Shown here: positions 7,985 to 29,742 of the stretch, piece by piece
Layout: every line of letters starts with the position of its first letter
Numbering within the stretch: position 1 is the stretch's first letter
Source: an uncultured Methanosarcinales archaeon
GTDB lineage: Archaea; Nanobdellota; Nanobdellia; Woesearchaeales; CAIVOO01
Reading direction: 5' to 3'
Assembly (NCBI GenBank): GCA_964485195.1
Contig: CAZAIK010000004.1
Location: 1 to 33,672 of the forward strand
Length of the DNA: 33,672 nucleotides
Made by a program: the position numbers and the translations under genes
Notes under the pieces: model-generated
Database searches by the model: none
What the model saw: the letters and a program-made list of their open reading frames with translations, nothing else
Told to the model about the DNA's origin: nothing

Positions 7985-8035
7985 AAAACGTAATGGTTTA
8001 ATGCATTATTTAAATATTTTGAATAAAAAAAGAAA

Positions 8036-8248
8036 TTATCCCCTCTCGTGGGGGAGGGTTCTTACGATGGCGATGGGTATTGCTCCCTTTTCCAGCTCAA
8101 CCTTTGCGATTTCTATGGGGTTGTACTTCAGCCCTTCCAAGTCCTTTTTTTTGAGGTCAATGAGGAAAGGAGCGCCCATTGCTATCTGCAACGCCCTGCT
8201 TCCTATGATGCGGGCCTTTTCAAACTTGGTAAGTTTTTCCTCGCTCAT
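8036..8248 (-). CDS. rpoK: DNA-directed RNA polymerase subunit K (Rpo6)
   Basis: LTKFEKARIIGSRALQIAMGAP...NPIEIAKVELEKGAIPI. Confidence 0.97.
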   Translation of the reverse strand: MSEEKLTKFEKARIIGSRALQIAMGAPFLIDLKKKDLEGLKYNPIEIAKVELEKGAIPIAIVRTLPHERG

Positions 8249-9009: not shown

Positions 9010-9734
9010 TTTTCATCACCTTTCTCTGCCTCAGCTTCTTTCTTGTACTTCTCCTTCAATGCTTTCTTCTGGGCGTCAAATATTATCTTTACCTGTTCCT
9101 GGCCCATCTTCAGGGCATTGATGAGCTGGTCCTTTTCTACGTCCCCGTCCATCTGGAGAAGTGACAAGGCACCTGTTCTCTGCACTATCGCTATGGGTAT
9201 GTCAGCTACCTTCCCGTCAAATGCCTCCTCGTCATAGTTGAGGTCTATCAGCACCTGCTCGTCAACTCTCCCCACGGAAACAGCAGCTACCAGGTCACGC
9301 ATAGGTATTCCTGCATCTGCAAGTGCTATTGAGGCGGCGCAGATTCCTGCGCATCTCGTTCCCGCGTCTGTCTGGGGAAGCTCTATGAAAACATCCACAA
9401 CAGCATTGGGGAACTCCTCAAGACTCAGAACAGGAAGCAAGGCCTTTTCAGTAACCATTGAAATTTCCTTGGACCTTCTTGAAGGCCCCGGCCTTACTCT
9501 CTCTCCCTTGCTGGAGAAGGGCATCATAGCGTAGTTAACCCTGATTATTCCTTCCTTGGGATTCTGAAGAAACCTGGGGTGAAGGTTCCTGGGGCCGTAA
9601 ACCGCTGCGTATGCGATGGTATTGCCTATCCTGAACATGGCAGAGCCGTCAGCCCTCTTTATTATTCCTGCCTTTGCCTCTATCTCCCGCATTTCCTCGA
9701 ATTTTCTTCCGTCAAGTCTTTTTGGATAAGTCAT
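9006..9734 (-). CDS. rrp41: Exosome subunit Rrp41
   Basis: RLDGRK, ADGSA, AVYGPR, PSRRSKEIS and DAGTRCA motifs. Confidence 0.95.
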   Translation of the reverse strand: MTYPKRLDGRKFEEMREIEAKAGIIKRADGSAMFRIGNTIAYAAVYGPRNLHPRFLQNPKEGIIRVNYAMMPFSSKGERVRPGPSRRSKEISMVTEKALLPVLSLEEFPNAVVDVFIELPQTDAGTRCAGICAASIALADAGIPMRDLVAAVSVGRVDEQVLIDLNYDEEAFDGKVADIPIAIVQRTGALSLLQMDGDVEKDQLINALKMGQEQVKIIFDAQKKALKEKYKKEAEAEKGDEK

Positions 9735-10447
9735 TTTTGTTCACCTTTCTCTTCCACTTTCTTTCCTGTTGATTTTTCCAGGAAATCCTTTATCCTCTCG
9801 GTGAGCCCGCTTAAGTGGGATTCCTTTTCTATCTTCCTTATTGCTTCTATGGCGATAAGCTCGTTCTTGGGGTCTCCGGAAATCCAGAGCAGGCTGTTCT
9901 GCCCCACTATTATCTTGCAGCCGGTGACCTGCTTTATCATGTGCACCATTGAGCCCTGCTTTCCTATTATCCTCGGGACCTTGTTGGTGTTTACCTCTAT
10001 AATCCTCCCGCCGCTCAGCTTCCTGAGACCGGGCCCTCTTGCGGTAAGGTCCACAAGCTTTTGCGATGTTACATTTGTTATCTTTGCAACAATGTAATCA
10101 TCAACGTCAAAATACTGTGTCAAGTCCGCACCCCTCTGTATGAACTCGGAGGTGGCGTCCTTCACAGAAAGCATCGCCGGGTAAGCGCAGTTTGTGTCCA
10201 CGCGCCATCCGCTGTAGGAAACATCCTCCACTCTCCCTATTATCACGTCTCCCCTTCGGGGAATGTATTTTCCTGCAAGGGGGATTATCCTTATTATCTT
10301 TCCTTCTATGCTCACCAGGCCGAGCCTGGATGCGACAATCTTGTCCTTGTCCCTGTAAGTTCCGAAGGAGGGCAGGTATTCCATTCCTGTTGCCATCTCT
10401 TCCCCAGGGATAACTATCTCCTTGTTCTTCACTAAAATTTCTGCCAT
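9731..10447 (-). CDS. rrp4: Exosome RNA-binding subunit Rrp4
   Basis: IVIPGE, YIPRRGDVIIG (S1 domain), KVPRIIGKQGSM (KH domain) and HLSGLTERI. Confidence 0.95.
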   Translation of the reverse strand: MAEILVKNKEIVIPGEEMATGMEYLPSFGTYRDKDKIVASRLGLVSIEGKIIRIIPLAGKYIPRRGDVIIGRVEDVSYSGWRVDTNCAYPAMLSVKDATSEFIQRGADLTQYFDVDDYIVAKITNVTSQKLVDLTARGPGLRKLSGGRIIEVNTNKVPRIIGKQGSMVHMIKQVTGCKIIVGQNSLLWISGDPKNELIAIEAIRKIEKESHLSGLTERIKDFLEKSTGKKVEEKGEQK

Positions 10448-10452
10448 TTTAT

Positions 10453-11187
10453 TCACCTGTTTTCCTTTTCCTCTATCAGAGCTTCTCCGTGTGTCAGCTC
10501 ATTTATCCGGTCAAAGAATTCATCCCTTCTGCCCGCAGGCACTTCAATAAGGCAGGAATAAGAGCCATCGGTTTTCCATTCTTCCTTGTTTATGGTTCCG
10601 AATTGTTTCAGTATTCCCTGCGCGCGGGAAGCGGTTTTTAATGGAAGCAGAACACTGAAAACCTTTGAGTCCACTCTTATCGGAAGAACGGGCTTTAATT
10701 CCTTGACTGTTTCCTCAAGCTGTTCCTCAGCTGTTTTCCCTTCTTTAACCTTTATCCTTGCCTCTTCAAAGGCGTTTGCTATTCTCTGGACCGGCAATGG
10801 ATGCCCTGTCTTGCCGTCCACGCAGTTGACACGCACAAGCTCCAACAGCCTTTTTCTTTTTTTCTCTCTTTGCTCATCCCTGTATTTGTCAGAATACTGG
10901 ATGATGCCTTTCTTGATGATGATTTCAGCTATTTTTACCTTGTCTGTTGTCCCGAAAAAATCCGTCAGCTCCTGCTCGCTGGGCCTTAGCCCTTTCTTCG
11001 TGTCTGTGAAAATGTCCTCGCTAAGCAGGGCTTCCCTGACATTGTTAAGCCTGCCTTCCCTGAACTGCGCTGCAAGGTCGGGGTCTATGGCAACCTCAAA
11101 ATGCCTGGATCTTTCAGGAATGAAGCGTGCAACATTCCATTCCGCTGCACCTTCCTTCTTGAGGTCATAAACATATCCCTTAGCCAT
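10453..11187 (-). CDS. Ribosome maturation factor SBDS/Sdo1
   Basis: FEVAIDP, IFTDTKKG, FGTTD and LKPVLPI motifs, in its conserved position between psmA and rrp4. Confidence 0.92.
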   Translation of the reverse strand: MAKGYVYDLKKEGAAEWNVARFIPERSRHFEVAIDPDLAAQFREGRLNNVREALLSEDIFTDTKKGLRPSEQELTDFFGTTDKVKIAEIIIKKGIIQYSDKYRDEQREKKRKRLLELVRVNCVDGKTGHPLPVQRIANAFEEARIKVKEGKTAEEQLEETVKELKPVLPIRVDSKVFSVLLPLKTASRAQGILKQFGTINKEEWKTDGSYSCLIEVPAGRRDEFFDRINELTHGEALIEEKENR

Positions 11188-11188
11188 T

Positions 11189-11920
11189 TTATTTCTTCTT
11201 CAATGAGCTGAAAATCTTTTCAATCTCCTTTTTGTTCAGCTGCTTGAATTTCTTGTCCTCTGTCTTGATGTATGCAGCTGCCACCCTCTCCGGGCCGAAT
11301 TTCCCGTCGAGAACTTTGATGAGTGATTTTATTCCCAGCTTCAGCCCGTCTTCCACATTCATTGATTCCTTGTACTCCTTCTTCAGGATTTCCTCAACCT
11401 CTGCTTCAGCCTCGCCGATGGCCGCTGCCTTGAACTGGAAGTATATTCCCACGGGGTCTGTCTCAAACAGTTTTGGCCCCTGCTGGTCCACTCCTGTTAT
11501 CAGTAAAGAGACGCCGAAAGGCCTCAGCCCCGCCGACTGCGTGCATATCTGCTTCAGGCTGCAGATGTCCTTGACAACCTCATCAACATCAATCTGGGTG
11601 TCGTAAGTTACCTGGTGCTGCTGTGCCTTTAGCTGGCCCTTTTCCACCAGTACTCTTGCATCTGGCGCTATTCCTGAAAAGGTGGCGCCAATATGCTCAT
11701 CAATCTGGTATATTTTCTCCACAGATTCAGGTATTATGAAAGGGTCAACAATCCTCTTGTCAGCTATCAACACAACCCCGTCCTTGCATACTATGCCTAT
11801 TGCAGTGCTTCCCTGCTTTACTGTCTTTTTCGCATACTCAACCTGCAAAAGCCGCCCGTCGGGGGAGAACATCGTGATGGTCCTGTCATAACCCATCATT
11901 TGGTGCTGTACTTGCTGCAT
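11189..11920 (-). CDS. psmA: Proteasome alpha subunit
   Basis: GYDRTITMFSPDGRLLQVEYA signature and RPFGVSLL. Confidence 0.97.
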   Translation of the reverse strand: MQQVQHQMMGYDRTITMFSPDGRLLQVEYAKKTVKQGSTAIGIVCKDGVVLIADKRIVDPFIIPESVEKIYQIDEHIGATFSGIAPDARVLVEKGQLKAQQHQVTYDTQIDVDEVVKDICSLKQICTQSAGLRPFGVSLLITGVDQQGPKLFETDPVGIYFQFKAAAIGEAEAEVEEILKKEYKESMNVEDGLKLGIKSLIKVLDGKFGPERVAAAYIKTEDKKFKQLNKKEIEKIFSSLKKK

Positions 11921-17239: not shown

Positions 17240-18547
17240 ATGGAAAAAAAGGTGTGGGTTATTTCTGTAGATATGGGATATGGGCATCAGAGGGCAGCTT
17301 ATCCCCTGAAAGACATTGCCTATGAAAGGATAATCACTGCCAATTCTGACAAGATTGTCACGCCTGGAGAAAAGAAGCAGTGGAAAAGGTTCAGGAGATA
17401 TTACGAAGGGCTTTCAAGGTTCAGGAGCTTTCCTGTGCTGGGAAGGTTTATCTGGAAAATATATGACAAGTTCCAGTCAATATCCCCTTTTTATCCCTTC
17501 AGGGACTTGTCCAAGCCGAACCTCGGCTCAATATTCATGCACAAATTAATCAGGAATGATTTTCTCAGGAGCATAGTTGACTACACAAGCAAGAAAAAGA
17601 TTCCTTTTGTGAGCACGTTCTTTGCCCCCGCACTTGCCGCAGCCCGCGCAGGAAGGAAGGATGTTTACTGCGTTGTCACAGATACTGACATTAACAGGAT
17701 ATGGGCCCCTGAAAAGCCGAAAGAAGACAGAGTATACTATCTGGCCCCCACGAGACACAGCACGAAAAGATTGATGCAGTACGGAGTGCCTGAAAAGAAC
17801 ATTTTCTTCACAGGATTCCCCCTGCCGAAGGAAAACACGGGCAGAAACCTGGAAATTATGAAAAAAGACCTGGGGGAACGACTGCCCAATCTCGACCCCA
17901 AAAAGGTCTACATATCACGCTACAAGGAAACAATAAAAAAACAGCTGGGCAAGCATTACAGGAAAAAAAGCAGGCATCCCCTGACATTGACATTCGCGGT
18001 GGGAGGTGCTGGCGCGCAAAAGGAAATAGGCAAGGCAATACTCAAAAGCCTTAAGAGCAGGATAAAAAGCCACAAAATACGCGTCAATCTGGTTGCAGGG
18101 ACGCGGCTTGAGATTAACCAATACTTCCTGAACGCGATCAAGGAAATCGGCCTGGAACAGGAACACGGCAAGTACGTAAGGGTTCTCTGCGAGCTTAACA
18201 AGAAAAACCATTTTGAAAAATTCAACGAATGGCTCCACGAGACAGACATATTGTGGACAAAGCCCAGCGAGCTTTCCTTCTACGTTGCTCTTGGCATACC
18301 CATAATAATCACCCCACCCCTTGGCTCTCACGAGATTTTCAACGAGAAATGGCTTGTAACAATGGGCTCGGGCATAAGGCAGGAAAACCCTGAGTATGCC
18401 AGTGAATGGCTGTTTGAATGGATTAACAAGGGCATACTTGCAGAAGCGGCCTGGGAAGGATACCTGGAAGCTCCTTCCTACGGCGCATACAACATAGAAA
18501 AAATAATATTCAACAAGGACAAAAACAGGATAAAATTAAGGTATTAA
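17240..18547 (+). CDS. GT-B glycosyltransferase, MGDG-synthase/GT28-like
   Basis: MGYGHQRAA, VVTDTD, TGFPLP, GGAGAQ and WTKPSEL motifs. Confidence 0.8.
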   Translation: MEKKVWVISVDMGYGHQRAAYPLKDIAYERIITANSDKIVTPGEKKQWKRFRRYYEGLSRFRSFPVLGRFIWKIYDKFQSISPFYPFRDLSKPNLGSIFMHKLIRNDFLRSIVDYTSKKKIPFVSTFFAPALAAARAGRKDVYCVVTDTDINRIWAPEKPKEDRVYYLAPTRHSTKRLMQYGVPEKNIFFTGFPLPKENTGRNLEIMKKDLGERLPNLDPKKVYISRYKETIKKQLGKHYRKKSRHPLTLTFAVGGAGAQKEIGKAILKSLKSRIKSHKIRVNLVAGTRLEINQYFLNAIKEIGLEQEHGKYVRVLCELNKKNHFEKFNEWLHETDILWTKPSELSFYVALGIPIIITPPLGSHEIFNEKWLVTMGSGIRQENPEYASEWLFEWINKGILAEAAWEGYLEAPSYGAYNIEKIIFNKDKNRIKLRY

Positions 18548-18861: not shown

Positions 18862-19332
18862 TCAGTTCAGCAGCACAAAGCTCAGGTTAAGAACAGCTGC
18901 AAAGCTTACCCACACTATGTATGGAACAAGCAGGCAGGCAGCTGTTCTTGAAACCCTTGCAAACCATATGATTGTCAGTAAAATCGCAATCCACAAGACA
19001 ATTATCCCTATAAGCCCAAACAGCGGGCTTCTCAGGTAAAAGAAGAAAAAAGACCACAGGACATTCAACACAAGCTGTACCCCAAACAGGGCAATCCCTG
19101 TCCTGACCTCTTTCTTTTTCCATCCCTTTGCCCAGACAATATAAAGGGAGATGCCCATCAGGACAAACAGGGCTGTCCATACCGGGGCGAAAACCCAGCT
19201 CGGAGGATTGAAGAAGGGCTTGTTCAACGTGTCATACCATTCGGGAATTGACCTTGCGTTGAACAAGGAGCCGATAAGCGCCGCTAATTGGCAAACTCCC
19301 AAAGAAACTACCAATACTGCAATATTCTTCAA
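18862..19332 (-). CDS. tspO: TspO/MBR tryptophan-rich sensory protein
   Basis: WYDTLNKPFFNPPSWVFAPVWT, QLVLNVLWSFFFF and LVPYIVWVSFA. Start uncertain (TTG 19332, just after the gnd stop). Confidence 0.9.
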   Translation of the reverse strand: MKNIAVLVVSLGVCQLAALIGSLFNARSIPEWYDTLNKPFFNPPSWVFAPVWTALFVLMGISLYIVWAKGWKKKEVRTGIALFGVQLVLNVLWSFFFFYLRSPLFGLIGIIVLWIAILLTIIWFARVSRTAACLLVPYIVWVSFAAVLNLSFVLLN

Positions 19333-19334
19333 CC

Positions 19335-20249
19335 TTATTTTCTGCCTCCGGATTTTTTCTTTATGACCTCGTGACCGCCAAACATATTTCTTAATGCAGC
19401 TATTATCCGCCCGCAAACCTTGTGCTTCCTGGAGCGGACCCTAATCATCCTTGCCTCGTGAAGTATGGGCATATCTGCCATGTTCTCAAGCATTTTCATC
19501 TCCTCCTCTGTCTCCCCTTTTGGAACTTCGCAGGATATCTTTTCCAGGAAGCCTTTTTTCCGGAAGGCCTCCCATAGCCAGTCCATCAGGCGGCCTTCAA
19601 TGATGCTTCCGTGGGAATAAACTTTTACAACCTCTTTCAAGTCGGTATTGAAAACCCCCTGCTGTTTTTCTATTGCAAGAAATCCTTCAGCAATTGCTCC
19701 CATCATTCCGTATTCAATTGCATTATGCACTGCCTTAACAAAATGGCCGGCTCCTGATTCGCCCATATAGCCGTAGCCGTTCACAACGCACAAATCCCTG
19801 AAAAGCTTTTCAGTCTTCCTAAAAGCTGTTTTTTGGCCGCCGACCATCATGCACGCTCCCTTCCTTGCTCCCTCAATTCCTCCCGAGGTTCCGCAGTCAA
19901 GAAAATAAACATCTTTCTTTTCCAGCCTGTTACGCCTTTTGATGGAGTCCTTGTAAAAGGAATTTCCTCCGTCTATCACTATGTCTCCTTTTTTCAGGTG
20001 AGGCTCAAGCTTTGATATGGTATCATCAACAGGCCTGCCTGCAGGCACCATAATCCAGATTATCCTCTCTTTTTTTGGAAGTTTGTCAAACATCTGCTTT
20101 AATGTGAAAGCAGGAACAGCTCCCCTGCCGGCCAGCGCCTTTATGGGCTTTTCAGAAACATCATAAACAACTGGCTTGTTCCTCTTATCCAGAAGGTTAA
20201 GCACCATATTATGGCCCATCTTTCCGAGTCCGATAAAGCCTATTTTCAT
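19335..20249 (-). CDS. gnd: 6-phosphogluconate dehydrogenase, decarboxylating (short type)
   Basis: IGLGKMG, MVPAG, IDGGNS, DCGTSGG and GAGHFVKAVHNAIEYG. Confidence 0.93.
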   Translation of the reverse strand: MKIGFIGLGKMGHNMVLNLLDKRNKPVVYDVSEKPIKALAGRGAVPAFTLKQMFDKLPKKERIIWIMVPAGRPVDDTISKLEPHLKKGDIVIDGGNSFYKDSIKRRNRLEKKDVYFLDCGTSGGIEGARKGACMMVGGQKTAFRKTEKLFRDLCVVNGYGYMGESGAGHFVKAVHNAIEYGMMGAIAEGFLAIEKQQGVFNTDLKEVVKVYSHGSIIEGRLMDWLWEAFRKKGFLEKISCEVPKGETEEEMKMLENMADMPILHEARMIRVRSRKHKVCGRIIAALRNMFGGHEVIKKKSGGRK

Positions 20250-20263
20250 TTTAACCTCCTTTT

Positions 20264-20647
20264 TTATCTTTCATTAACAATTAATGTTCCTCTCATCCCT
20301 GAATGCCCTCTCCCGCAGGGAACATTGCACCAGAAATCAAATTCTCCTGCCTCATCAGCCACGAATTCCACAATAACCTCACTCTCCGGCTCCAGCCTTT
20401 CATTGATGCCGTATTCAGGAAGCACAAAGCCGTGGGTTACATCAGCGCTTGTGATTCTCAGCCTGACAAAATCCCCTTGATTGACTGTTATTGGGTCAGG
20501 GGTGTACTCCCACTGCACGGCTGTAACTTCAATCTCCCTTTCATTGCCGGTTACATTCTGCACTGAGTTATCATTTCCATCCTGCGCGCACCCAAAAAAC
20601 ACGGGAAGGAGCAATGCAAATATTCCCAAGATAACGTATCTTCTCAT
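20264..20647 (-). CDS. Stand-alone CuA-type cupredoxin, lipoprotein-like
   Basis: FFGC signal/lipobox-like site. DVTHGF…FWCNVPCGRGHSGM supplies His, Cys, Cys, His and Met as in COX2/NosZ CuA domains. Confidence 0.85.
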   Translation of the reverse strand: MRRYVILGIFALLLPVFFGCAQDGNDNSVQNVTGNEREIEVTAVQWEYTPDPITVNQGDFVRLRITSADVTHGFVLPEYGINERLEPESEVIVEFVADEAGEFDFWCNVPCGRGHSGMRGTLIVNER

Positions 20648-20648
20648 C

Positions 20649-22052
20649 TTATTTCGCCCTTAAATGCCATTGCCTGTTGTCCTTTTCTATGAATTCTTTT
20701 GCCTTTTCAGGATAGCTTCCTTTTTTGTGAGGATGAATTCTTAATCTTTTACCTATTATATTATCAACTATCTTCCACTGCTCCTCAATCTCGTCAGACC
20801 GTACAAAAACTGACTGGTCCCCTTTTACGACATCCATAAGCAGTGTTTCATAAGCTTCAGGGGTGTTGGGGCCGAAGGTGCATTCGTGGCAGAAGTCCAT
20901 CATCACAGAGGTTATGTCGCTGCTGGCAGGCACCTTGGCATTCAGCCTCATGTAAAACCCCTCCTCAGGCTGTATCTGTATGACAAGGTAATTGGGCTCA
21001 AAATTGCATATCCCTCTGAAAAGCAGGCAGGGCGCCTGCTTGAACTGTATGTATATTGAGGTTATCTTGTCCTTCATTCCCTTGCCTGTTATGAAATAAA
21101 AGGGAACCTCTTTCCACCTGCTGTTATTCACGAAAAGTTTCAGCGCTGCAAATGTTTCAGTTTTTGAGTTCTTCTTGACTCCTTTTTCTTTTTTGTATCC
21201 TTCATACTGTCCGAGGACAACATTTTTGCTGTCAATCTTCTTTGCTGATTTCAAAACCTTTACCTTTTCATTCCTTATGTGCTGCGCTGTCAGCGTCACA
21301 GGGGACTCCATTGAAGTGAGGCACAATAACTGGAGCATATGATTCTGTACCACATCCCGCATGGCGCCGTGTTCATCATAGTAATTGCCTCTCCCTTCAA
21401 GCCCGAAGTCCTCACTCAAGATTATCTGAACGTGATCTATGTAATTCCTGTTCCATAAAGGTTCCAGTATCGTGTTGGTAAACCTTATGATGGAAATGTT
21501 CTGCACAAGCTCCTTCCCAAGATAATGATCTATCCTGTAAATCTGCTCTTCCCTGAAAATCTTTTTCAGCTGGTTGTTTATCTTTTTTGCTGATTTCAGG
21601 TCGTGGCCGAAGGGCTTTTCAAAAACAACCCTGCTCCAGGTATTTTTCTTTTTGTTAACCAGCTTGCATCTGCTCAGGGCATTTGCAATTGCACCGAAGT
21701 GCTGGGGCATGGTTGCAAGATAAAAAAGCCTGTTGCCTTCCAGCCTGTGCTTTTTTTCCTTTTCCCTTATGAAATCGCCCAGCGCCACAAATCTTTCTTC
21801 GTCATAAAAATCTGCCCTGAAATAATAGCACCTTTTTTTCAGCTTTTCCATAACTTTCTTATTGGCATTTTTGATGAATTTTTTTGAGTTTTCAACAAGT
21901 TTTTCCCCGTTAATGTCTTCCCGGGCAATTCCCACCACTGCAAAATTATCCGCACTTTCATTGACTAGAATATTGTAAATAGCGGGAAGAAGCTTTTTCT
22001 TGGCCAAGTCTCCCGTAGCTCCAAATATTACAAACAACACATCCTTTTTCAT
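20649..22052 (-). CDS. zwf: Glucose-6-phosphate 1-dehydrogenase (bacterial type)
   Basis: FGATGDLA, EKPFG, YRIDHYLGKE and RDVVQNHMLQ. Confidence 0.96.
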   Translation of the reverse strand: MKKDVLFVIFGATGDLAKKKLLPAIYNILVNESADNFAVVGIAREDINGEKLVENSKKFIKNANKKVMEKLKKRCYYFRADFYDEERFVALGDFIREKEKKHRLEGNRLFYLATMPQHFGAIANALSRCKLVNKKKNTWSRVVFEKPFGHDLKSAKKINNQLKKIFREEQIYRIDHYLGKELVQNISIIRFTNTILEPLWNRNYIDHVQIILSEDFGLEGRGNYYDEHGAMRDVVQNHMLQLLCLTSMESPVTLTAQHIRNEKVKVLKSAKKIDSKNVVLGQYEGYKKEKGVKKNSKTETFAALKLFVNNSRWKEVPFYFITGKGMKDKITSIYIQFKQAPCLLFRGICNFEPNYLVIQIQPEEGFYMRLNAKVPASSDITSVMMDFCHECTFGPNTPEAYETLLMDVVKGDQSVFVRSDEIEEQWKIVDNIIGKRLRIHPHKKGSYPEKAKEFIEKDNRQWHLRAK

Positions 22053-22870
22053 TTTGTGATATCCCCATATTCAGGGATTACATCTTCAGTGAAATTCCTC
22101 ATTCCTTCCTGGGACTTGTAATGAACAAGAAGCTCCTTGATTACTTTGTACGGAAGGGTTGCTATGTCTGCTCCCACCAGCGCAGCTTCCCTCACCTGTC
22201 TTGGATTTCTCAGGCTTGCTGCCAGCACTTTCGCTTTTATGTCCTGCTTCTTGAAAATTTCCACTATCTGTCTTACAAGGTCAATTCCTGATATTATCCC
22301 GTTGTCCTCCAGAATCTTGCCGTTTTCATTCCAGCCATAGGCAGGAAAATAGTCACGCTTCTCAAACGGGATGTTATTGTTCTTTCTTATGAAATCGTCA
22401 ATCCTTCCTGCGAAGGGGCTCACGAATCTTGCCCCGGCCCTTGCAGCCAGCAGGGCCTGCTCAGGAGTGAATATCAGGGTGCAGTTCACAGGGATACCTT
22501 CCCTGGAAAGGGCTTCTATGGCTTTTATCCCCTCAAACTCCCTGCCCTGCTCTCCTTCAAATGAAGGGTTCACAGGTATTTTTATGTAAACATTGTTTGC
22601 AACGGGATTGAATCTTTTGAACAGCTTTTCGCCCTGCTCCACCATTTTTTCATATTCATATTCAGTGACTTCAAGGCTGACAGGGGTGCCCTTTGCAGTG
22701 AGCAGGATTTTCTCAATATACTGCTCCATATCTATTTCTTCTCCCTTCTCTTTCATAGCATCAACAGCTTTCTTGATAAGGGAAGGGTTCATGGTAATGC
22801 CGTCAGCTATTCCCGCAGAATAAATTTCCTCTATTTCTTCCAGTTTTGCAGAATCTATGAATATTCTCAT
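22049..22870 (-). CDS. tal: Transaldolase (TalC/FSA family)
   Basis: FIDSA, GITMNPSL, YIKIP, NCTLIF, VSPFAGRIDD and LAASLR. Confidence 0.9.
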   Translation of the reverse strand: MRIFIDSAKLEEIEEIYSAGIADGITMNPSLIKKAVDAMKEKGEEIDMEQYIEKILLTAKGTPVSLEVTEYEYEKMVEQGEKLFKRFNPVANNVYIKIPVNPSFEGEQGREFEGIKAIEALSREGIPVNCTLIFTPEQALLAARAGARFVSPFAGRIDDFIRKNNNIPFEKRDYFPAYGWNENGKILEDNGIISGIDLVRQIVEIFKKQDIKAKVLAASLRNPRQVREAALVGADIATLPYKVIKELLVHYKSQEGMRNFTEDVIPEYGDITK

Positions 22871-22927: not shown

Positions 22928-23287
22928 TTATAATTTGCACATATAGCAGTCTGAACGCCGGCAGGTAATGCTGCTGCCTTTCCATTTCAGGCTCCATTTT
23001 TTCATGTCCTTGATTATTCCTATGAAATCCTTCCCGCTTCTTGTGAGGGAATACTCGCATTTGATAGGAGACGTCTTTGCATCAACTTTTTTAGTTATCA
23101 GTTTTTCATTCTCAAGCTCTTTTAGCCTCATGGAAAGCACTTTTGGTGTAATTTCCTCCATCTTTTTTTTGAGATGGGAATATCTTTTCCATTTTGCTTT
23201 CCCCTTGTATAATTCAAGAAGTATGAGTAGCGTCCATTTTTTGCCCACAAAACTAACAGTCCTGTATATGGTGCATTTCTTGTCCAT
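22928..23287 (-). CDS. HxlR/DUF24-family winged-helix regulator with N-terminal Cys and C-terminal Cys cluster
   Basis: KCTI...VGKKWTLLILLEL, ITPKVLSMRLKELE and EYSLT, with tail CRRSDCYMC. Confidence 0.9.
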   Translation of the reverse strand: MDKKCTIYRTVSFVGKKWTLLILLELYKGKAKWKRYSHLKKKMEEITPKVLSMRLKELENEKLITKKVDAKTSPIKCEYSLTRSGKDFIGIIKDMKKWSLKWKGSSITCRRSDCYMCKL

Positions 23288-23305
23288 AGTATCTTTATGG
23301 AAACT
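23288..23305. promoter_or_regulatory. Candidate HxlR-family operator AGTATC-N6-GAAACT
   Basis: Near-perfect inverted repeat abutting the hxlR start. Resembles GTATC-N6-GATAC boxes of DUF24 regulators. Confidence 0.45.
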
Positions 23306-23371
23306 CCATATTATTTAAATAAGTTTCTTTTTTATACCAGCTATACTTATGATAACGAGGGGTTTGGAATT

Positions 23372-24994
23372 ATGAACGAATATGAAAGGGCAAAAAAATT
23401 CAATTTTCCCACGCAGAACGTTTCCCTGGAATGGCCTGAGAGGACGGTTGACAGCTTGTGCCCCATATGCTTGAAGCACATTGCAGCCAAAATCTACGAA
23501 AAGAACAATAAAATATTTATGGAAAAAGAGTGCAAGGAGCACGGCAGTTTTAAGGAATGCTTAAGCGATGATGCTGTTTTCTTCAAGAGAAACGAATTAC
23601 TGACATTTGAGGACGGATGGGGGCAGACAAACCCTCAGGTCAAAAATCCGAAAGGCTGCCCCGAATCCTGCGGACTTTGCAGCAATCACATAGGCTCGCC
23701 CTGTCTTGTAAACATCGACCTGACCAACAGGTGCAATATGAAATGCCCTGTCTGCTTCGCAAATTCAAACGCGGCAGGCTATGTTTATGAGCCCAGCCTT
23801 GCCCAAGTCAAAAAGATGATCAGAACAGCAAGAAGCCTGAGGCCGGTGCCCACAATGGCAATACAATACTCCGGCGGGGAGCCGACCATGTCCCCCATAT
23901 GGTTTGACGCCTTGAAGGCTGCAAAAGAAATGGGAATAACCCACGTCCAGGCAGCCTCCAACGGGATGAAATTTGCCAACGAGCCCGGCTTTGCCAAGAA
24001 GAGCAAGGAAGCTGGGCTGGACGTTGTATACCTGCAGTTTGACGGCACAGATGACAAGCCATACAAATACACGAGGAACATTTCCAACCTTTGGCACGTT
24101 AAGGAAAAAGCAGTGGAGGAGATTGGCAAGGCAGGCATAGGCATCTGCCTGGTCTCAACCCTTGTAAAGGGGGAAAGCAGCAGGAACGTGGGGGACATAA
24201 TAAGGTTTGCAGTGAATAACGACTACGTTACATCGGTGAGCCTCCAGCCTGTGTCATTCACCGGCAGGATGGACCCTGAAGAGAGAGCCAAAAAAAGGTT
24301 CACGCTCACGGACTTGGCGAATGAGACAGAGAAGCAGACAAAGGGAATTATAAAAAAATATGACTGGTATCCCATGAGCACGGTCAGTCCTTTTTCCAGG
24401 CTGCTGGACATCCTGAAACCTTCTGACACAAGGCATATGATTGCTGTTTCCCACGCCCATTGCGGAACTGCAACTTATCTGTGTGTGAATAAGGAAACAA
24501 AGGAAGCTGTTCCATTTCCAAGGTTCCTGGACATAGAAGGGCTGATGGGATATTTTGATGAGATGGCCAAAAAGCTGGAAAACAAGTCAAAGCTCACAAG
24601 AAGCATAAGCCTTGTCAAGATTTTTGCAAACCTGAAGAAATATTTCAAGGAAGAGAAAGCCCCTGAAGGGATGAAATTCAAAGACTTTATCGGTTTTTTG
24701 CGCAGCTTTTCTGACAGCTCCCAGAGGAAAAAGAGCAGGGAAAGCAAGTGGAAGATGCTCTTTGTGGCGTCAATGCACTTCCAGGACAGCTACAACTTTG
24801 AGGTTGACAGGATAAGAAGATGCTCAATATACTACTGCTCCCCTGAAGGAAAGATATACCCCTTTTGCAGTTATAACGTGGGCCCTTACTACAGGGAATA
24901 TGTTGAGAAGAAATTCTCAATTCCCATAAAGGAATGGGTCAGGAAAAGGACTTCAGAAGGGGTTACCAAAGGGTTTTATGAAGGCAAAGTTTAG
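23372..24994 (+). CDS. tes: Radical SAM protein, tetraether lipid synthase (Tes/GDGT-MAS, MJ0619) family
   Basis: N-terminal CPIC…CKEHG metal site, GCPESCGLCSNH, TNRCNMKCPVCFAN, SGGEPT, YLQFDG, QPVSFTGR, HCGTATY and MHFQDSYNF…RCSIYY…PFCSYN. Confidence 0.8.
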   Translation: MNEYERAKKFNFPTQNVSLEWPERTVDSLCPICLKHIAAKIYEKNNKIFMEKECKEHGSFKECLSDDAVFFKRNELLTFEDGWGQTNPQVKNPKGCPESCGLCSNHIGSPCLVNIDLTNRCNMKCPVCFANSNAAGYVYEPSLAQVKKMIRTARSLRPVPTMAIQYSGGEPTMSPIWFDALKAAKEMGITHVQAASNGMKFANEPGFAKKSKEAGLDVVYLQFDGTDDKPYKYTRNISNLWHVKEKAVEEIGKAGIGICLVSTLVKGESSRNVGDIIRFAVNNDYVTSVSLQPVSFTGRMDPEERAKKRFTLTDLANETEKQTKGIIKKYDWYPMSTVSPFSRLLDILKPSDTRHMIAVSHAHCGTATYLCVNKETKEAVPFPRFLDIEGLMGYFDEMAKKLENKSKLTRSISLVKIFANLKKYFKEEKAPEGMKFKDFIGFLRSFSDSSQRKKSRESKWKMLFVASMHFQDSYNFEVDRIRRCSIYYCSPEGKIYPFCSYNVGPYYREYVEKKFSIPIKEWVRKRTSEGVTKGFYEGKV

Positions 24995-25004
24995 GAGGTG
25001 ATAT

Positions 25005-25262
25005 ATGATGGCCAAAAAAATAAATGTGCTCCATCTGGGGTACGCACTGGGCATAACAGGGGCATTGTACGCATTATTCCTGGGAATTGTTGCGTGGCTT
25101 TACAGCTGGGGCGCTGACCTTGTGTTCGCGCTAAGCTCCTACTATATAGGATACGCCCCCACCCTGGGAGGAGCCCTGATAGGAACACTATGGGTGCTGG
25201 TTGACGGCTTCATAGCAGGAGTGCTGATAGCAGTGTTTTACAACCTGTTCCAGCAAAAATGA
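25005..25262 (+). CDS. Small membrane protein (family often labelled 'holin'-like)
   Basis: Hydrophobic, with LSSYYIGYAPTLGGALIG…VDGFIAG…FYN. GGAGGTGA SD. Confidence 0.7.
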   Translation: MMAKKINVLHLGYALGITGALYALFLGIVAWLYSWGADLVFALSSYYIGYAPTLGGALIGTLWVLVDGFIAGVLIAVFYNLFQQK

Positions 25263-25372
25263 CTTTTGCTTTTCAATGAAGCTTGGAAAACTTGCACGTG
25301 ACTGCAGAACCCGGTCAAGAAAGAGGATTGTAGATGAAAAACTAATATCAAAGATAAAAGAGTTTGTTAAAA

Positions 25373-26194
25373 ATGAAAAGGAAAATAATAGAGATAGAGG
25401 ATGAGAAGTGCAACGGATGCGGGGTTTGCATTCCCAACTGCCCAGAAGGGGCTATCCAGATTATTGACGGCAAGGCAAGGCTGGTAAGCGACCTGTATTG
25501 CGACGGGCTGGGAGCCTGCATAGGCCACTGCCCCACAGATGCAATAAGAATTATTGAAAGGGAGGCAGAGCCGTATGATGAAAAAAAGGTCATGGAAAGG
25601 ATAGTTAGGCAGGGCAGGAACGTCATAAAGGCGCACCTTGAGCATCTTAAGGAGCATAATGAGGGGGAGTTCCTGAAACAGGCAGAGGAATACCTCAGGG
25701 AAAACAACATCAGCAATCCTCTTGAAGTGAAGGCATCCAATAACCGTTCAGCAGCCCTTCAGCAGTTCCACAGCTGTCCCGGCTCGCAAACCCTGGACTT
25801 CAGCAGGAAAAGGAGCGCAAAATCAAATGCACCAAAACAGCAGTCCGAGCTGCGGCAATGGCCTGTCCAGCTGACACTGGTCCCGCCCGACGCGGGATTC
25901 TTCCAAAATTCTGACTTGCTTGTCGCAGCTGACTGCGTTCCATTTGCAAACGCAAACTTTCACCCTGAACTGTTAAAGGGGAAGTCTCTTGTCATAGGAT
26001 GCCCCAAGCTTGATGACATAGAAATGTACAGGGAAAAACTCACAGCAATGCTGAAGCAGAACAGCATAAAGAGTGTTACTGTTGCGATAATGGAAGTGCC
26101 CTGCTGCAACGGGCTTTACCACGCAGTTGATGAAGCGATAAGGGAGTCAGGCAAGAACATTGAACTGGAAAAGGTGATAATTCCTATACAATGA
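25373..26194 (+). CDS. 4Fe-4S dicluster protein with conserved Cys-rich C-terminal domain
   Basis: CNGCGVCIPNCPEG and CDGLGACIGHCP, plus LRQWPVQL, AADC, IGCPKLDD and MEVPCC. Confidence 0.9.
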   Translation: MKRKIIEIEDEKCNGCGVCIPNCPEGAIQIIDGKARLVSDLYCDGLGACIGHCPTDAIRIIEREAEPYDEKKVMERIVRQGRNVIKAHLEHLKEHNEGEFLKQAEEYLRENNISNPLEVKASNNRSAALQQFHSCPGSQTLDFSRKRSAKSNAPKQQSELRQWPVQLTLVPPDAGFFQNSDLLVAADCVPFANANFHPELLKGKSLVIGCPKLDDIEMYREKLTAMLKQNSIKSVTVAIMEVPCCNGLYHAVDEAIRESGKNIELEKVIIPIQ

Positions 26195-26197
26195 TTG

Positions 26198-26452
26198 TCA
26201 GCCAAGAAAGGGGTTGCCGAAAATAAGAAATGCCAGGATGGTGTGAGCAATTACTGATGCGAAGAAGAACCACCAGAACCAGCAGTGTTTGTAATAGTAT
26301 CTCCTGTACCACTTGTGCCTGAACATCCTGTTAATGAAGTTTATCCCTGCCAGGCATCTGCAGGAAAAAAACACCAGCAATAGCAGGACTATGTTTGTTA
26401 TCCCCAGCAGGAATACAAGCTTCACTCCAAGTTCGGGATTTATCAGCACCAT
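26198..26452 (-). CDS. Small two-helix membrane protein
   Basis: Two hydrophobic segments, FFSCRC and two His. Begins 1 nt after the FTR stop. Confidence 0.65.
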   Translation of the reverse strand: MVLINPELGVKLVFLLGITNIVLLLLVFFSCRCLAGINFINRMFRHKWYRRYYYKHCWFWWFFFASVIAHTILAFLIFGNPFLG

Positions 26453-26453
26453 T

Positions 26454-26735
26454 TTACGCCTTTACAAAGAGGGAGCACCAGCATTCTCCCTTCTCCTTCC
26501 AGGTTTTTTGCATCTTGAAATTGCAGGGGCAGATTAATTTCAAGTCCTCCTCCCTGTTGCCGGTGGTCATCCTGCAGGGGCAGAATTTCAGGCCGTGGTT
26601 TTTCTCATTCTCAAGAACGCCCCTTGCCAGCCTTTCCACCTCTTTTTCGTCAGGGTTTAGCCTGAAATCATTTGGTTCCTGCCTGTCCACGAAATCCTGC
26701 CAGATTTTAATCAGCTTTTCTATTTTGTTGCCCAT
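26454..26735 (-). CDS. Ferredoxin:thioredoxin reductase catalytic subunit-like
   Basis: FCPCR…ICPC…ECWCSLF motif triad. Confidence 0.9.
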   Translation of the reverse strand: MGNKIEKLIKIWQDFVDRQEPNDFRLNPDEKEVERLARGVLENEKNHGLKFCPCRMTTGNREEDLKLICPCNFKMQKTWKEKGECWCSLFVKA

Positions 26736-26995
26736 TTTTTCAGCTCCTCATATGGCATCTCCCCGCAGTTTGCCCTGTTGTTTTCCTCATCCACATATGC
26801 AGGAACTCCGAATTCCCCTCCGCAGGCTTTCTTGATTTTTTCAGTGAACTTCCTCATCTTCTTTGCGTTTTTCTCATCACGCCACACTTCCAGCTTTTCA
26901 ACTTCAATGCCTTCCTCCTTAAGTTTGTCAACCAAAGGCTGCATCTTGTGGCAATGGGGGCATTCCTTTCCGTAAAAGAATATTATCTTTTTCAT
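26720..26995 (-). CDS. Thioredoxin/glutaredoxin-like protein
   Basis: FFYGKECPHC and GVP cis-Pro. GGAGGTG SD before ATG 26995. Confidence 0.9.
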   Translation of the reverse strand: MKKIIFFYGKECPHCHKMQPLVDKLKEEGIEVEKLEVWRDEKNAKKMRKFTEKIKKACGGEFGVPAYVDEENNRANCGEMPYEELKKWATK

Positions 26996-27249
26996 AATCC
27001 CAACACCTCCCTGATTTCTTTCTCTTTGATTTCGCAGTAAGCGTGAAGTGTTGAGCAGGTAGGGCACTGCTCCGGAGGCTCCCTGCCTATATGAATGTCA
27101 TTGCACACATAGCATCTCCATATTCTCTTGTCGCCAAGGTCAGAAAGTGTTTTCTCAACATCCTCATTTCCAGCATTGTCATAATCTTCAGGAGCATTGA
27201 CTCCCCAGTGTATGTCCCCATCCTTGTTTTTGAATAAAGCTTTTGGCAT
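26992..27249 (-). CDS. Rubredoxin-like domain protein
   Basis: WRCYVCNDIH…PPEQCPTC. Confidence 0.85.
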   Translation of the reverse strand: MPKALFKNKDGDIHWGVNAPEDYDNAGNEDVEKTLSDLGDKRIWRCYVCNDIHIGREPPEQCPTCSTLHAYCEIKEKEIREVLGL

Positions 27250-27353: not shown

Positions 27354-27488
27354 ATGAAGCGCATAATCAGCGTCTCTTTGGAAAAGGAAACAATAGCCAG
27401 GATAAGCGAGATTCTAAAGAAAGGCAAGTTCAGGAACAAGAGCCACATTGTGGAGGAAGCAGTGAGGAGAATGCAGGATGACGAGTGA
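27354..27488 (+). CDS. 44-aa ribbon-helix-helix protein (not in ORF track)
   Basis: MKRIISVSLEKETIARISEILKKGKFRNKSHIVEEAVRRMQDDE. TATA TTTATAAA near 27320. Overlaps the kinase start. Confidence 0.8.
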   Translation: MKRIISVSLEKETIARISEILKKGKFRNKSHIVEEAVRRMQDDE

Positions 27489-29742
27489 GAAAAAGAAACA
27501 CAAAAAAAGAGAGATAGTAGAACCAAGTTCAACTGTGATGGGAATTCATACGAATACTCCTGTTAATGTTTGGCAGTTAGATTATGAGTCTCCTCCTGAG
27601 GAGGTGATAAGACAGAAACATTGTTATGTTAAAAATATGCGATTCTTATCAGGAGAAGTCGGAAAGATTATTAAACTTATGACACAAGATGCCATTGGAA
27701 TCTCAGTTCCGCATGAAATCTCTTTTTTTAATTTTACTCACTATACTTATGAATTTTTAAGCCTTTTTTCTGAAGACCTGCACTCAGAAATAATTTTTCT
27801 GCAACAGGCTATTCAAAAATTCAATAATAGGAAAGTAGATTCTCTAAGACTGAATGAAAAATCACATGGTATTACCTCGGAAGGTTTAGAAGAAGACAGA
27901 AAAAGCAGACTAGAAGGTCTGGATGATATGATTAGTACGCTTGTGGCTTATAATAACAGAGGGGTTAAAAACTTGGTTGAAAGCGATGATATGGTACATT
28001 TAGTACAACTAGCACAAGAATTGCCTTTTTCTTTTTCGAGACTTATGGGATTTGATTTCATAAGATACTCAGGAGATAGAAATTATAATGCTGAAAGATT
28101 TAGTTTCTTGAAGGAAGCAAGAGATCTTGAATTACTATTGGAAAGTAAAAGGAGCATACTTATGGGGAGATGGGGGGCTTATATCTTAGGTCCTGGCTCT
28201 GAAGATGTTTTTGCTGATCAGTTAGAAGAAACACATTTTTCAAGAATTAGTTCTTGGGAGGATTTTATTAAAAAAGTACCGAGGGAGAAATTAGAAAAAT
28301 ATTTATCTTTTCCTTTAACCTATGATGACCTTGTTTTAGGCACGCCTGAGACTGGCTATTATAAACAGCTCAGCAGCGCTACTAAAAAATTCGGTGCGTT
28401 ACTTAATGTTTACCAAGCAGTGAATGATATCATTATTAATTATCAAGAAAGTATTAACATTGAGAATGGCAAAGTTAATTTTGACTTCAAAAGATTAAAG
28501 AAATTTGATGAGATACGTTCAAAAATTGAAAATCTCAAATTAAAGACAGCGCAACTTCCCCATTATAGTTTGACAAAGCACATTGGTTCGGGAGGAGCAG
28601 GAGACGTTTATCACGCTGTTGATGATTTTTCAGGGACCGATGTCAAGATCAAGGTTTTCAGGGAGGACATGAAGACTTCCATGCGGGAGGCCCGTGAGAA
28701 GGAGGGCAGGTCTGTTGACAATGTTGTCAGGGGGATGATGACCAAGATGAGGAGCAGGATAAGTGATTTCACGAACATAGGCCAGGTTTATCACGGAGGT
28801 TCAACTGAGGATGGCAGGATATTCATTGTGGGTGAATATGTTGATGGCGGAGCTGTGGAAGAAGAAGTTGATGGCGAGTATCGGATAAGGGATGATATTT
28901 CTGGTAAAGCTGTTTTTGACATTTTTGACAAGATGCTCCAGGGTATGCAAGTTTTACACGATGCCGGGATGTTGTGGAAGGATGTCAAGTTAAGGAATTT
29001 GCTTGTTTCAAAAGATCATTCAAAAGTCAAGATTGATGACCTGGAGATGCTTTCAGGGCTTGATGAGATGGTGCAGGAGCCGAGATATTCAAAGGCCTCT
29101 GACAGGTATGCAGCGCCGGAGGTGATGCAGGATCCCACGCAGGCAAGCGTGGCATCGGAGATTTATTCTGCGGGGGTCTGCCTGTTGACTATGCTTACAA
29201 GGAAGTCTGGGATAATGGACGGAGTTAATACTTTACCGCGTGAAAAATATGCTCTTGAGCTGGTTAATATTTTACGAGACCACGAATTTGGTATTGCAAA
29301 TATACCTCCATTTAGTGTTATTCAGGATTTGGAGATAAAAAGTTGCATATTTGAAAGTTTGGCTTATGACCCAGTAGATAGGCCCGGGGTTACAAAAGAA
29401 TTAAGACAGAACATAAAAAATCTAAATAATGAGAGGTATTACAGGGAGGGAATACCCCTGATTGATCGTGAGTTTTATGAACAGGTTTATATGAAAAAAG
29501 AAGAAAGAATAGATTTAAATCAAGCACTCATCCGCGATAAGACTTCAAAATTACTTCTTGATATTGCCAATATGAATAAAACTATTCCCATCGATACTGA
29601 CAGTTCCAAGATTATGAAAGAGGCGTTTTCCATCATTGTAGAGGAGACCAGGACAAAAATAAAAAATCTTGATTACTGGAAATCTGAAGAATTCCTTTGT
29701 CTGCCTGAGAAAGCGCCCGAGTGGGGCTGTCCAGCTGTATGA
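27478..29742 (+). CDS. Atypical Hanks-type Ser/Thr protein kinase with long N- and C-terminal extensions
   Basis: IGSGGAGDVY, VKIK, WKDVKLRN, KIDDLE, YAAPE and SEIYSAG. Confidence 0.85.
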   Translation: MTSEKKKHKKREIVEPSSTVMGIHTNTPVNVWQLDYESPPEEVIRQKHCYVKNMRFLSGEVGKIIKLMTQDAIGISVPHEISFFNFTHYTYEFLSLFSEDLHSEIIFLQQAIQKFNNRKVDSLRLNEKSHGITSEGLEEDRKSRLEGLDDMISTLVAYNNRGVKNLVESDDMVHLVQLAQELPFSFSRLMGFDFIRYSGDRNYNAERFSFLKEARDLELLLESKRSILMGRWGAYILGPGSEDVFADQLEETHFSRISSWEDFIKKVPREKLEKYLSFPLTYDDLVLGTPETGYYKQLSSATKKFGALLNVYQAVNDIIINYQESINIENGKVNFDFKRLKKFDEIRSKIENLKLKTAQLPHYSLTKHIGSGGAGDVYHAVDDFSGTDVKIKVFREDMKTSMREAREKEGRSVDNVVRGMMTKMRSRISDFTNIGQVYHGGSTEDGRIFIVGEYVDGGAVEEEVDGEYRIRDDISGKAVFDIFDKMLQGMQVLHDAGMLWKDVKLRNLLVSKDHSKVKIDDLEMLSGLDEMVQEPRYSKASDRYAAPEVMQDPTQASVASEIYSAGVCLLTMLTRKSGIMDGVNTLPREKYALELVNILRDHEFGIANIPPFSVIQDLEIKSCIFESLAYDPVDRPGVTKELRQNIKNLNNERYYREGIPLIDREFYEQVYMKKEERIDLNQALIRDKTSKLLLDIANMNKTIPIDTDSSKIMKEAFSIIVEETRTKIKNLDYWKSEEFLCLPEKAPEWGCPAV

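Follow-up and report, generated by a model that had tools for sequence, protein, structure and literature searches.

Does a DPANN archaeon carry a lipid-tail-coupling enzyme of its own, on which lipids would such an enzyme act, and is it part of a redox-controlled gene system? These questions are raised by a locus at positions 22928-26194 of the 33.7-kb stretch of archaeal DNA analysed here (“the window”), which was taken out of a 102,833-bp contig. An earlier, sequence-only reading had placed four genes in this locus, and each was found where it had been placed: hxlR, a radical S-adenosylmethionine (SAM) gene designated tes, a gene for a protein with two transmembrane segments (memb85) and a gene for a 2x[4Fe-4S] protein (FeS273). 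The reading that we favour, with more confidence than doubt, is that tes encodes an intact and probably active radical SAM enzyme of the Tes family and is native to the genome of a Woesearchaeota/Nanoarchaeota-like DPANN archaeon. The larger proposal, in which all four genes form one stress-inducible lipid cross-linking system, fared less well.

The Tes protein and the genome that carries it

The tes gene occupies 23372-24994 on the plus strand and encodes 540 amino acids (aa). Its mechanically defined open reading frame (ORF) begins at 23297 and would give 565 aa; the public gene call (P0001, 100% coverage) begins at ATG 23372, which is preceded by a GAGGGG box, and the in-frame upstream ATG at 23297 is probably not used. 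The product scored 539.6 bits against the NCBIfam Tes equivalog NF045702 (cut-off 450), matching profile positions 3-485 out of 486, while the runner-up NCBIfam family, TrsS, scored 323.7 bits against its own cut-off of 490. Pfam identified Radical_SAM and Zn_ribbon_HMPTM (62.2 bits) domains. The only strong match in the PDB was GDGT-MAS (7TOL/7TOM), with an E-value of 1.4e-126 for 7TOL (HMMER, using residues 48-551 of the 565-aa ORF) and 41-42% identity to MJ0619. Such a match is far beyond chance, and the product is a genuine Tes-family enzyme.

Residues are given in 540-aa numbering. For 7TOL, chain numbers were taken to equal native numbers + 20, and metal ligands were those listed in the available text of PMC9433317. 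Every ligand listed there has a matching residue in the 7TOL alignment, as expected from the sequence-only reading, which had described a Tes-like radical SAM protein with all metal motifs. The rubredoxin-like CX2C...CX2H iron site (C9, C12, C33 and H36 of MJ0619) corresponds to C30, C33, C54 and H57, the [4Fe-4S]N site (C73, C77, C80 and a His) to C96, C100, C103 and H106, and the radical SAM CX3CX2C motif (C98, C102 and C105) to C121, C125 and C128. In an alignment of 32 sequences, C30, C33, C54, C96, C100, C103, H106, C121, C125, C128, C364, M468, C484 and C499 are invariant, and H57 and Y488 are at least 90% conserved. By our own assignment, the Cys ligands of the C-terminal [4Fe-4S] cluster may be among C364, C484 and C499. 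Met439 and Tyr459 of MJ0619, whose counterparts 20 residues apart had also been pointed out earlier, align with M468 (in MHFQD, codon 24773-24775) and Y488 (in CSIYY, codon 24833-24835, both on the plus strand). Because the MJ0619 variants M439A, Y459F and Y459L are reported as still active (PMC9433317), this pair marks membership of the family but does not prove activity.

An AlphaFold2 (AF2) model of the product (predicted local distance difference test score, pLDDT, 86.4; predicted template modelling score, pTM, 0.90) was matched by Foldseek to 7TOM and 7TOL at E-values of ~1e-51 (1.9e-51 for 7TOM), with template modelling (TM) scores of 0.84-0.92 (0.84/0.90 for 7TOM) over 505-512 columns. 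The remaining PDB matches were to the radical SAM core alone (TM ~0.3). As modelled, the protein shares the four-domain fold of MJ0619, and a lipid tunnel is predicted by homology. It contains no hydrophobic segment.

By homology with MJ0619, the enzyme would bind two lipids and SAM would be reductively cleaved at the CX3CX2C cluster. The SAM-derived radical would take hydrogen from the terminal carbon of an alkyl chain, and the alkyl radical would be parked on the C-terminal [4Fe-4S] cluster, for which M468 would be the resting ligand. Formation of a second radical would then permit a C-C bond, giving a macrocyclic or membrane-spanning lipid. Electrons would be supplied by a low-potential donor, for which FeS273, although not conserved beside tes, is a candidate. 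The lipids could be archaeal diethers or of bacterial type, and either self-made or derived from a host.

Archaeal genes in the window include those for exosome subunits Rrp4, Rrp41 and Rrp42, SBDS, proteasome alpha, Pop5, Cbf5 and an archaeal-type MtaB. Database relatives are described here and below as found among the 120 matches listed for each protein. For Cbf5, 13 of these were named by organism (8 Woesearchaeota, 4 Nanoarchaeota and 1 “archaeon”), the best of them at 64% identity. For the proteasome subunit, Nanobdellota make up most of the nearest Atlas cluster, and the named relatives of FeS273 among those listed (Diapherotrites, Nanoarchaeota, Woesearchaeota, Altiarchaeota, Thermoplasmata and one bacterium) are mostly DPANN. 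These relatives support an archaeal, DPANN-like (Woesearchaeota/Nanoarchaeota-like) origin of the contig, in agreement with the probable DPANN archaeon named at the outset.

Contamination by host DNA has been proposed for Tes homologues in DPANN metagenome-assembled genomes (MAGs) (Zeng et al. 2022, PMC8941075). The composition of tes is typical of the window (GC 0.466, z 0.5; GC at third codon positions, GC3, z 0.92; 27 window genes), and the gene stands mid-window with archaeal genes on both sides. It is therefore native to the DPANN genome, and the contamination idea fails for it. The idea fails as well for a Candidatus Pacearchaeota locus (L042), because its tes gene (9986-11575) is flanked by genes for Cdc6, the PolD small subunit, phosphoribosyl pyrophosphate (PRPP) synthetase and Lhr. 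Note that Pacearchaeota were listed as a phylum without a Tes homologue by Zeng et al. (2022, PMC8941075).

Position among bacterial and archaeal homologues

The closest Tes relatives among the matches listed were three full-length proteins (70-72% identical) and a fragment of 324 aa (84%); the contig of one full-length relative is 647,887 bp long and carries the label “archaeon.” Below these, identity drops to 49% or less and most of the homologues are bacterial; of 14 organism-named rows, nine are bacterial. A genome scan, for which loci were chosen via peptide words shared with the query, gave 80 tes loci with 33-48% identity, and the best E-values were from Syntrophaceae and Thermodesulfobacteriota (5e-171 for L027).

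Of the 80 loci, four (L027, L039, L046 and L047) were dropped by a filter on length and ambiguous residues; the other 76, with the window protein and 12 proteins from the database, gave the 89 rows of a first tree. Removal of 34 near-duplicate rows by hand left 55, which were used for a quick tree and then for a careful maximum-likelihood (ML) tree. In the ML tree, the window protein and its three 70-72% relatives form a clade with support of 100/100. A set of 12 rows, in which this window clade is joined by Planctomycetota, Desulfohalobiaceae and Pacearchaeota copies, has support of 100/97, and the enclosing clade of bacterial and DPANN rows again has 100/100 and adjoins a Thermoplasmatota/Methanomassiliicoccales clade. 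None of 200 bootstrap trees separated Bacteria from Archaea. Constraining the 17 bacterial rows to monophyly cost 32.3 log-likelihood units, with an approximately unbiased test value (p-AU) of 0.027 that should be considered soft because the group was named after viewing the tree. The root of the tree is not fixed, so that transfer cannot be assigned a direction. Before its first CxxC the window protein has a PTQNV motif that delta-proteobacterial copies also have, and with mechanically chosen starts the pattern P[TS]Q was present in 12 of 32 rows of the enclosing clade and in 0 of 57 other rows.

The Methanosarcinales, Methanobacterium, Thermoproteales and Thermoplasmatota rows are separate from the window clade, which did not group with the lineage proxies of validated archaeal Tes. 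The sequence-only reading had proposed a phylogeny against validated Tes and its paralogues, and the outcome was divided: the assignment to Tes stood, since the equivalog cut-off was exceeded and TrsS remained below its own, while a place beside the proxies of the validated lineages did not. That reading had itself cautioned that the protein could act on another substrate, as some bacterial homologues may, and the window protein indeed turned out to be closest to bacterial homologues. As placed by these alignments and trees, the window tes belongs to a Tes subclade common to bacteria and other DPANN. Separately, two tandem Tes-family paralogues were observed in one Acidobacteriota locus (L077), at 7277-9382 (701 aa) and 9806-11569 (587 aa).

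Regulator, substrate and electron donor

The hxlR gene (22928-23287, minus strand) encodes a 119-aa winged-helix regulator of the HxlR/DUF24 type. The assignment was made with PF01638 (81.4 bits, cut-off 20.8) and 13 PDB relatives at E<=1e-5, including YdzF (5e-15) and HxlR (9e-13). Cysteines are present at positions 5, 77, 109, 114 and 117, with a CX4CX2C tail at the C terminus. Cys5 aligns with the N-terminal Cys of Bacillus subtilis HxlR (7BZE/7BZD; chain Cys14), which we take to be the sensing residue. As had been described for a divergent, Cys-bearing HxlR, the gene is separated from tes by a shared region of 84 bp (23288-23371), and its control of tes is plausible from this arrangement. 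Inspection of the region revealed A/T-rich TATA-like boxes and a 6-3-6 palindrome, TATGGAAACTCCATA, at 23296-23310, which we infer to be a candidate operator. The palindrome occurs once in the window, where no second copy that might serve as a regulon site was found. A similar core arose by chance in 62 of 100 shuffles (about one is expected per window), and an inverted-repeat finder applied to the hxlR-tes region returned only a chance-like distant pair.

It is well within reason, if short of probable, that HxlR has nothing to do with tes and regulates itself together with a pentose-phosphate/TspO operon or other redox genes, an arrangement compatible with our favoured reading of the enzyme. 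Beginning 57 bp after its stop codon, hxlR heads a string of genes on its own strand (18862-22870, minus; ORF coordinates and Pfam) for transaldolase (TAL), glucose-6-phosphate dehydrogenase (G6PD), a small cupredoxin, 6-phosphogluconate dehydrogenase (6PGD) and TspO, with ORFs that overlap or nearly touch. This co-directional string makes the target of HxlR ambiguous. In B. subtilis, the ribulose-monophosphate genes hxlAB, whose pathway is tied to pentose-phosphate metabolism, are under HxlR control, and an HxlR gene was found near tes in 0 of the 80 loci. On the other hand, any HxlR site within the shared 84 bp would be likely to affect both divergent promoters, and DUF24 regulators often control a divergent neighbour. 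The region at 18.8-27.3 kb reads as a redox island; this fits stress control and fits equally an HxlR that serves an NADPH-generating operon. The combination of TAL, G6PD, cupredoxin and 6PGD with TspO is unusual for an archaeon and is, as a set, a possible HxlR target.

Because the subclade is common to bacteria and DPANN, the natural substrate could be either lipid type. The specific alternative that the enzyme acts on something other than archaeal diethers, for example iso-branched or bacterial-type acyl or alkyl glycerolipids, and yields bacterial-like membrane-spanning lipids, is in our estimate rather unlikely. The archaeon would produce such lipids itself, using genes of bacterial type, or obtain them from a partner bacterium. 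This would accord with the nesting of tes among bacterial homologues, the N-terminal motif held in common with them and the bacterial majority of named rows, with the binding of E. coli phospholipids by GDGT-MAS (PMC9433317), and with reports of Fab, methylerythritol phosphate (MEP) pathway, cyclopropane fatty acid (CFA) synthase, Mss and Ger genes in Woesearchaeota MAGs (PMC11868695, PMC13159169). However, neither by its ligand set nor by its fold can the protein be told apart from the archaeal enzyme, and the available text of PMC11868695 and PMC13459092 gives no bacterial Tes homologue with a demonstrated product. In addition, Tes homologues are reported as not found in screened producers of diabolic and iso-diabolic acids, except for 3 of 14 iso-diabolic-acid acidobacteria under stringent criteria (PMC13159169). 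A further gene that may concern lipids encodes a DUF6938 protein (17240-18547, plus strand, ~5 kb from tes); a weak match to diglucosyl-diacylglycerol synthase (E 1.7e-7, far below the cut-off) was recorded, and the protein may be a lipid glycosyltransferase.

The two genes downstream of tes are those announced by the sequence-only reading, a small membrane protein followed by a 4Fe-4S dicluster protein. The first, memb85 (25005-25262, plus strand), encodes a glycine-rich two-helix protein of 85 aa with two hydrophobic stretches. A perfect Shine-Dalgarno sequence, AGGAGGTGAT, overlaps the tes stop codon, and the ATG of memb85 lies 10 nt after that stop; from this overlap and short gap, tes and memb85 are most likely co-transcribed on one mRNA. 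The family consists of 80-125-aa two-helix proteins (584 cluster representatives at E<=1e-3) with a remote relationship to DUF5676, and the nearest Atlas clusters hold bacterial hypothetical proteins. Identification as a phage holin was rejected (NCBIfam holin_4, 66.7 bits, below the cut-off of 70; no PHROG match). Because Tes lacks a hydrophobic segment of its own, it is an attractive idea that memb85 is a putative small membrane adaptor for it.

FeS273 (25373-26194, plus strand) has 273 aa from ATG 25373 (public call P0121; the mechanical ORF begins at 25364). It consists of an N-terminal 2x[4Fe-4S] ferredoxin domain (Pfam Fer4 families) and a Cys-rich C-terminal alpha/beta domain, annotated as PF27217 in the precomputed annotation; C135, C188, C210, C244 and C245 are invariant. 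An AF2 model was obtained with a pLDDT of 71.7. No PDB fold match to the C-terminal domain was found with Foldseek at E<=0.001, and a PDB sequence search reached the ferredoxin domain only. With at least 8000 matches, which are spread over DPANN, Altiarchaeota, Thermoplasmata and bacteria and show 58-68% identity among the 120 listed, FeS273 is a very common, uncharacterised redox protein. Its gene follows a 110-bp spacer without a Shine-Dalgarno sequence. Given this gap and the huge independent family, FeS273 does not appear by conservation to be a dedicated Tes partner; it is still a candidate donor. It may instead serve a string of thiol-redox genes that converges on it from the minus strand (26198-27249; Pfam, NCBIfam). 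That string encodes an 84-aa membrane protein, a protein like the catalytic subunit of ferredoxin-thioredoxin reductase (FTR; CPC...CPC...CWC), a CPHC thioredoxin/glutaredoxin-like protein and a rubredoxin-like protein.

Recurrence of the gene cluster was assessed by tblastn of 27 window proteins against the 80 loci and by profile and phmmer searches of 7,603 ORFs, with flanks of up to 10 kb. An HxlR, memb85-family or full-length FeS273-family ORF was found near tes in 0 of the 80 loci, and the hxlR-tes-membrane-FeS order in none; note that these loci hold Tes proteins 33-48% identical to that of the window and that the 70-72% relatives are not among them. The best memb85-like match among the ORFs (E 0.0022) was not convincing, and all 16 matches to the FeS273 profile were confined to the ferredoxin domain (profile positions 3-66). 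The 120 listed FeS273 relatives included none on a contig of the same length as those of the close Tes relatives (647,887, 8,289 and 2,866 bp), although this comparison is a weak one. The four-gene hxlR-tes-memb85-FeS273 “system” is thus not supported by conservation across these sequences.

A different association was conserved. In 21 of the 80 loci (L022, L025, L035, L040, L041, L045, L048-L053, L055, L058, L061, L063, L067, L069, L072, L074 and L075), tes is immediately followed on the same strand by an ORF for a small 2x[4Fe-4S] ferredoxin. This pair was found in 20 of 22 loci of the Thermoplasmatota/Methanomassiliicoccales clade, the misses being L059 and L076 (where the contig ends 2 nt past tes), and in none of the bacterial and DPANN, Methanobacterium or Thermoproteales loci of the set. 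The ferredoxins are 54-73 aa long where the start is clear; mechanical ORFs range from 54 to 118 aa, the ten that exceed 58 aa being lengthened by an early start codon. In Methanosarcina acetivorans, MA_1486 adjoins MA_1485, the ferredoxin of geranylgeranyl reductase (GGR) (PMC8941075). Together with the 21 pairs, this makes a ferredoxin donor a recurring theme, and a donor of ferredoxin type is plausible for Tes generally. The proposal that the Fe-S protein of the locus is the redox partner thus gained partial support as to the type of donor and none from conservation as to FeS273, whose family is ubiquitous and whose link to tes is unconserved. No description of the tes-ferredoxin pair was found in the available portions of the literature.

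Regulators beside tes also vary by lineage, with a histidine kinase and a sigma-54 activator in delta-proteobacteria and ArsR at L033. Six delta-proteobacterial loci (L030, L031, L032, L036, L037 and L043) share a block of ORFs of ~237, 720-750 and 470 aa upstream of tes, the first of which is missing from L031 and L036. At L043, the one locus of the six that was scanned with Pfam, the block encodes an ABC ATPase, a GAF-type histidine kinase and a response regulator of the sigma-54 type, and tes is followed by genes for a LiaI-like membrane protein and an MrfA-like helicase. This suggests that tes expression is regulated in delta-proteobacteria.

The full proposal of the sequence-only reading was that hxlR, tes, memb85 and FeS273 make up a thiol-stress-inducible system that cross-links lipids scavenged from a host, with FeS273 as dedicated reductant. 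We regard it as improbable. The divergent hxlR with its conserved N-terminal Cys, the redox- and stress-rich surroundings (the NADPH-generating pentose-phosphate operon, TspO, and the FTR-like, thioredoxin-like and rubredoxin-like proteins), the ferredoxin pairs conserved in Thermoplasmatota and the published view that most DPANN are without lipid synthesis (PMC8941075, PMC11868695) are all in keeping with it. Set against these are the absence of the cluster from all 80 loci, the independence of the FeS273 family and its distance from tes, the differences among tes-adjoining regulators and the statistically unremarkable palindrome. Equally doubtful is a joint reading in which a lipid-deficient, Woesearchaeota-like DPANN archaeon welds scavenged lipids, whether host diethers or bacterial-type lipids, into membrane-spanning ones. 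For this it would use a transferred Tes and a memb85 adaptor from a redox-stress operon switched by a thiol- or electrophile-sensing HxlR; the transfer would have been between DPANN and bacteria, with no direction specified.

Several points weigh against our favoured reading of tes as a probably active Tes-family enzyme of a DPANN archaeon, beginning with the empty recurrence result above. Bacterial Tes homologues are termed unconfirmed in function (PMC11868695, 2025; review PMC13459092, 2026), no member of the bacterial and DPANN subclade with a tested function was found in the available portions of the literature, and literature searches returned no test of any DPANN Tes copy. Validated Tes proteins are absent from the trees, in which their lineages are represented by proxies. 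MA_1114, a paralogue from a validated lineage, is reported to give only traces of macrocyclic archaeol (PMC8941075), so that membership in the Tes family is no guarantee of output of glycerol dialkyl glycerol tetraethers (GDGTs). Finally, no GGGPS, DGGGPS, CarS or mevalonate families were found among 48 ORFs scanned in the window, a result that says nothing of the remaining genome.

An artefact, in which tes came from a host or bacterium by mis-assembly or mis-binning or is a decaying relic, is the one alternative close to refuted: the contamination raised by Zeng et al. (PMC8941075) would favour it, and against it stand the archaeal surroundings and typical composition of the gene, its intact frame with all ligands present, its three 70-72% relatives (one on the long “archaeon” contig) and the parallel case of L042.

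Scans of the window for tRNAs and Rfam families gave no matches. A 754-aa eukaryote-type Ser/Thr protein kinase gene (27478-29742, plus strand) is lower in GC3 (0.359, z -2.8) than any other window gene, and the AbrB-domain gene beside it is also low; the two may form a more recently acquired patch.

Significance and comparison with known systems

The window protein adds a member to a known family, in an archaeon that is probably tiny and host-dependent. With native composition and a place among DPANN informational genes, the window and L042 copies indicate that at least some DPANN truly encode tes. Because these archaea are widely thought to use borrowed lipids, a tail-coupling enzyme is a rare handle on their lipid remodelling. 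Its position in the bacterial Tes clade also ties the DPANN question to the possible role of bacterial Tes homologues in the formation of branched GDGTs (brGDGTs) and to the question of which organisms leave GDGT-type biomarkers in anoxic waters and sediments. The gene is of value mainly as a candidate with which to approach lipid remodelling in DPANN and what the bacterial Tes clade does; it is short and intact, and it is directly testable in existing Methanococcus maripaludis or E. coli lipid chassis. Were the doubtful joint reading true, it would give the first example of an enzymatic pathway with which a symbiont reshapes membrane lipids that it has borrowed.

Among known systems, MJ0619 (7TOL/7TOM) is the closest structural counterpart, with the same four-domain architecture, the same Met/Tyr pair and the same ligands at the rubredoxin-like, [4Fe-4S]N, radical SAM and [4Fe-4S]C sites. 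The window protein differs from it in belonging to another subclade and in having ~27 extra N-terminal residues, which include the PTQNV motif of bacterial homologues. The validated enzymes MA_1486 (M. acetivorans), Maeo_0574 (Methanococcus aeolicus) and Thermococcus kodakarensis Tes are of the same NCBIfam equivalog family; the Methanosarcinales proxy L004, however, is just 40% identical to the window protein and is placed on the opposite side of the tree to the window clade. Like Tes, the radical SAM enzyme Mss of Thermotoga and Thermoanaerobacter joins lipids by the ends of their tails, and Mss homologues have been reported in DPANN MAGs (PMC13159169, PMC11868695). Mss is only remotely related to Tes (PMC13159169), whereas the window protein is Tes by hidden Markov model (HMM) score and fold.

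Outside the four-member window clade, the nearest proteins (42-48% identity) are bacterial homologues from Thermodesulfobacteriota/Syntrophaceae, Planctomycetota, Acidobacteriota, KSB1 and Eisenbacteria, with which the 100/100 clade and the N-terminal motif are held in common; their neighbours differ, being a histidine kinase with a sigma-54 activator, ArsR, or tandem paralogues. Other DPANN copies (L042 of Candidatus Pacearchaeota and P0073 of Nanoarchaeota) belong to the same bacterial and DPANN clade but are 45-46% identical, have other neighbours and are not a supported sister of the window clade (89/47).

For the regulator, the HxlR/DUF24 proteins B. subtilis HxlR (7BZE), YdzF, YodB (5HS7) and Staphylococcus aureus QsrR (4HQM) have the same winged-helix domain, and the Cys aligned with that of HxlR is present. 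The window HxlR is set apart by its extra CX4CX2C tail and by scores far below the NCBIfam cut-offs for named redox regulators (61.3 bits for RrpB, against 175). For the putative donor, the N-terminal domain of FeS273 has the same pair of 2x[4Fe-4S] motifs as the tes-linked ferredoxins of Thermoplasmatota/Methanomassiliicoccales, to which it is 29-42% identical, a generic likeness. Unlike those ferredoxins, FeS273 has 273 aa and a second domain, is encoded two genes away from tes and belongs to a separate, ubiquitous family.

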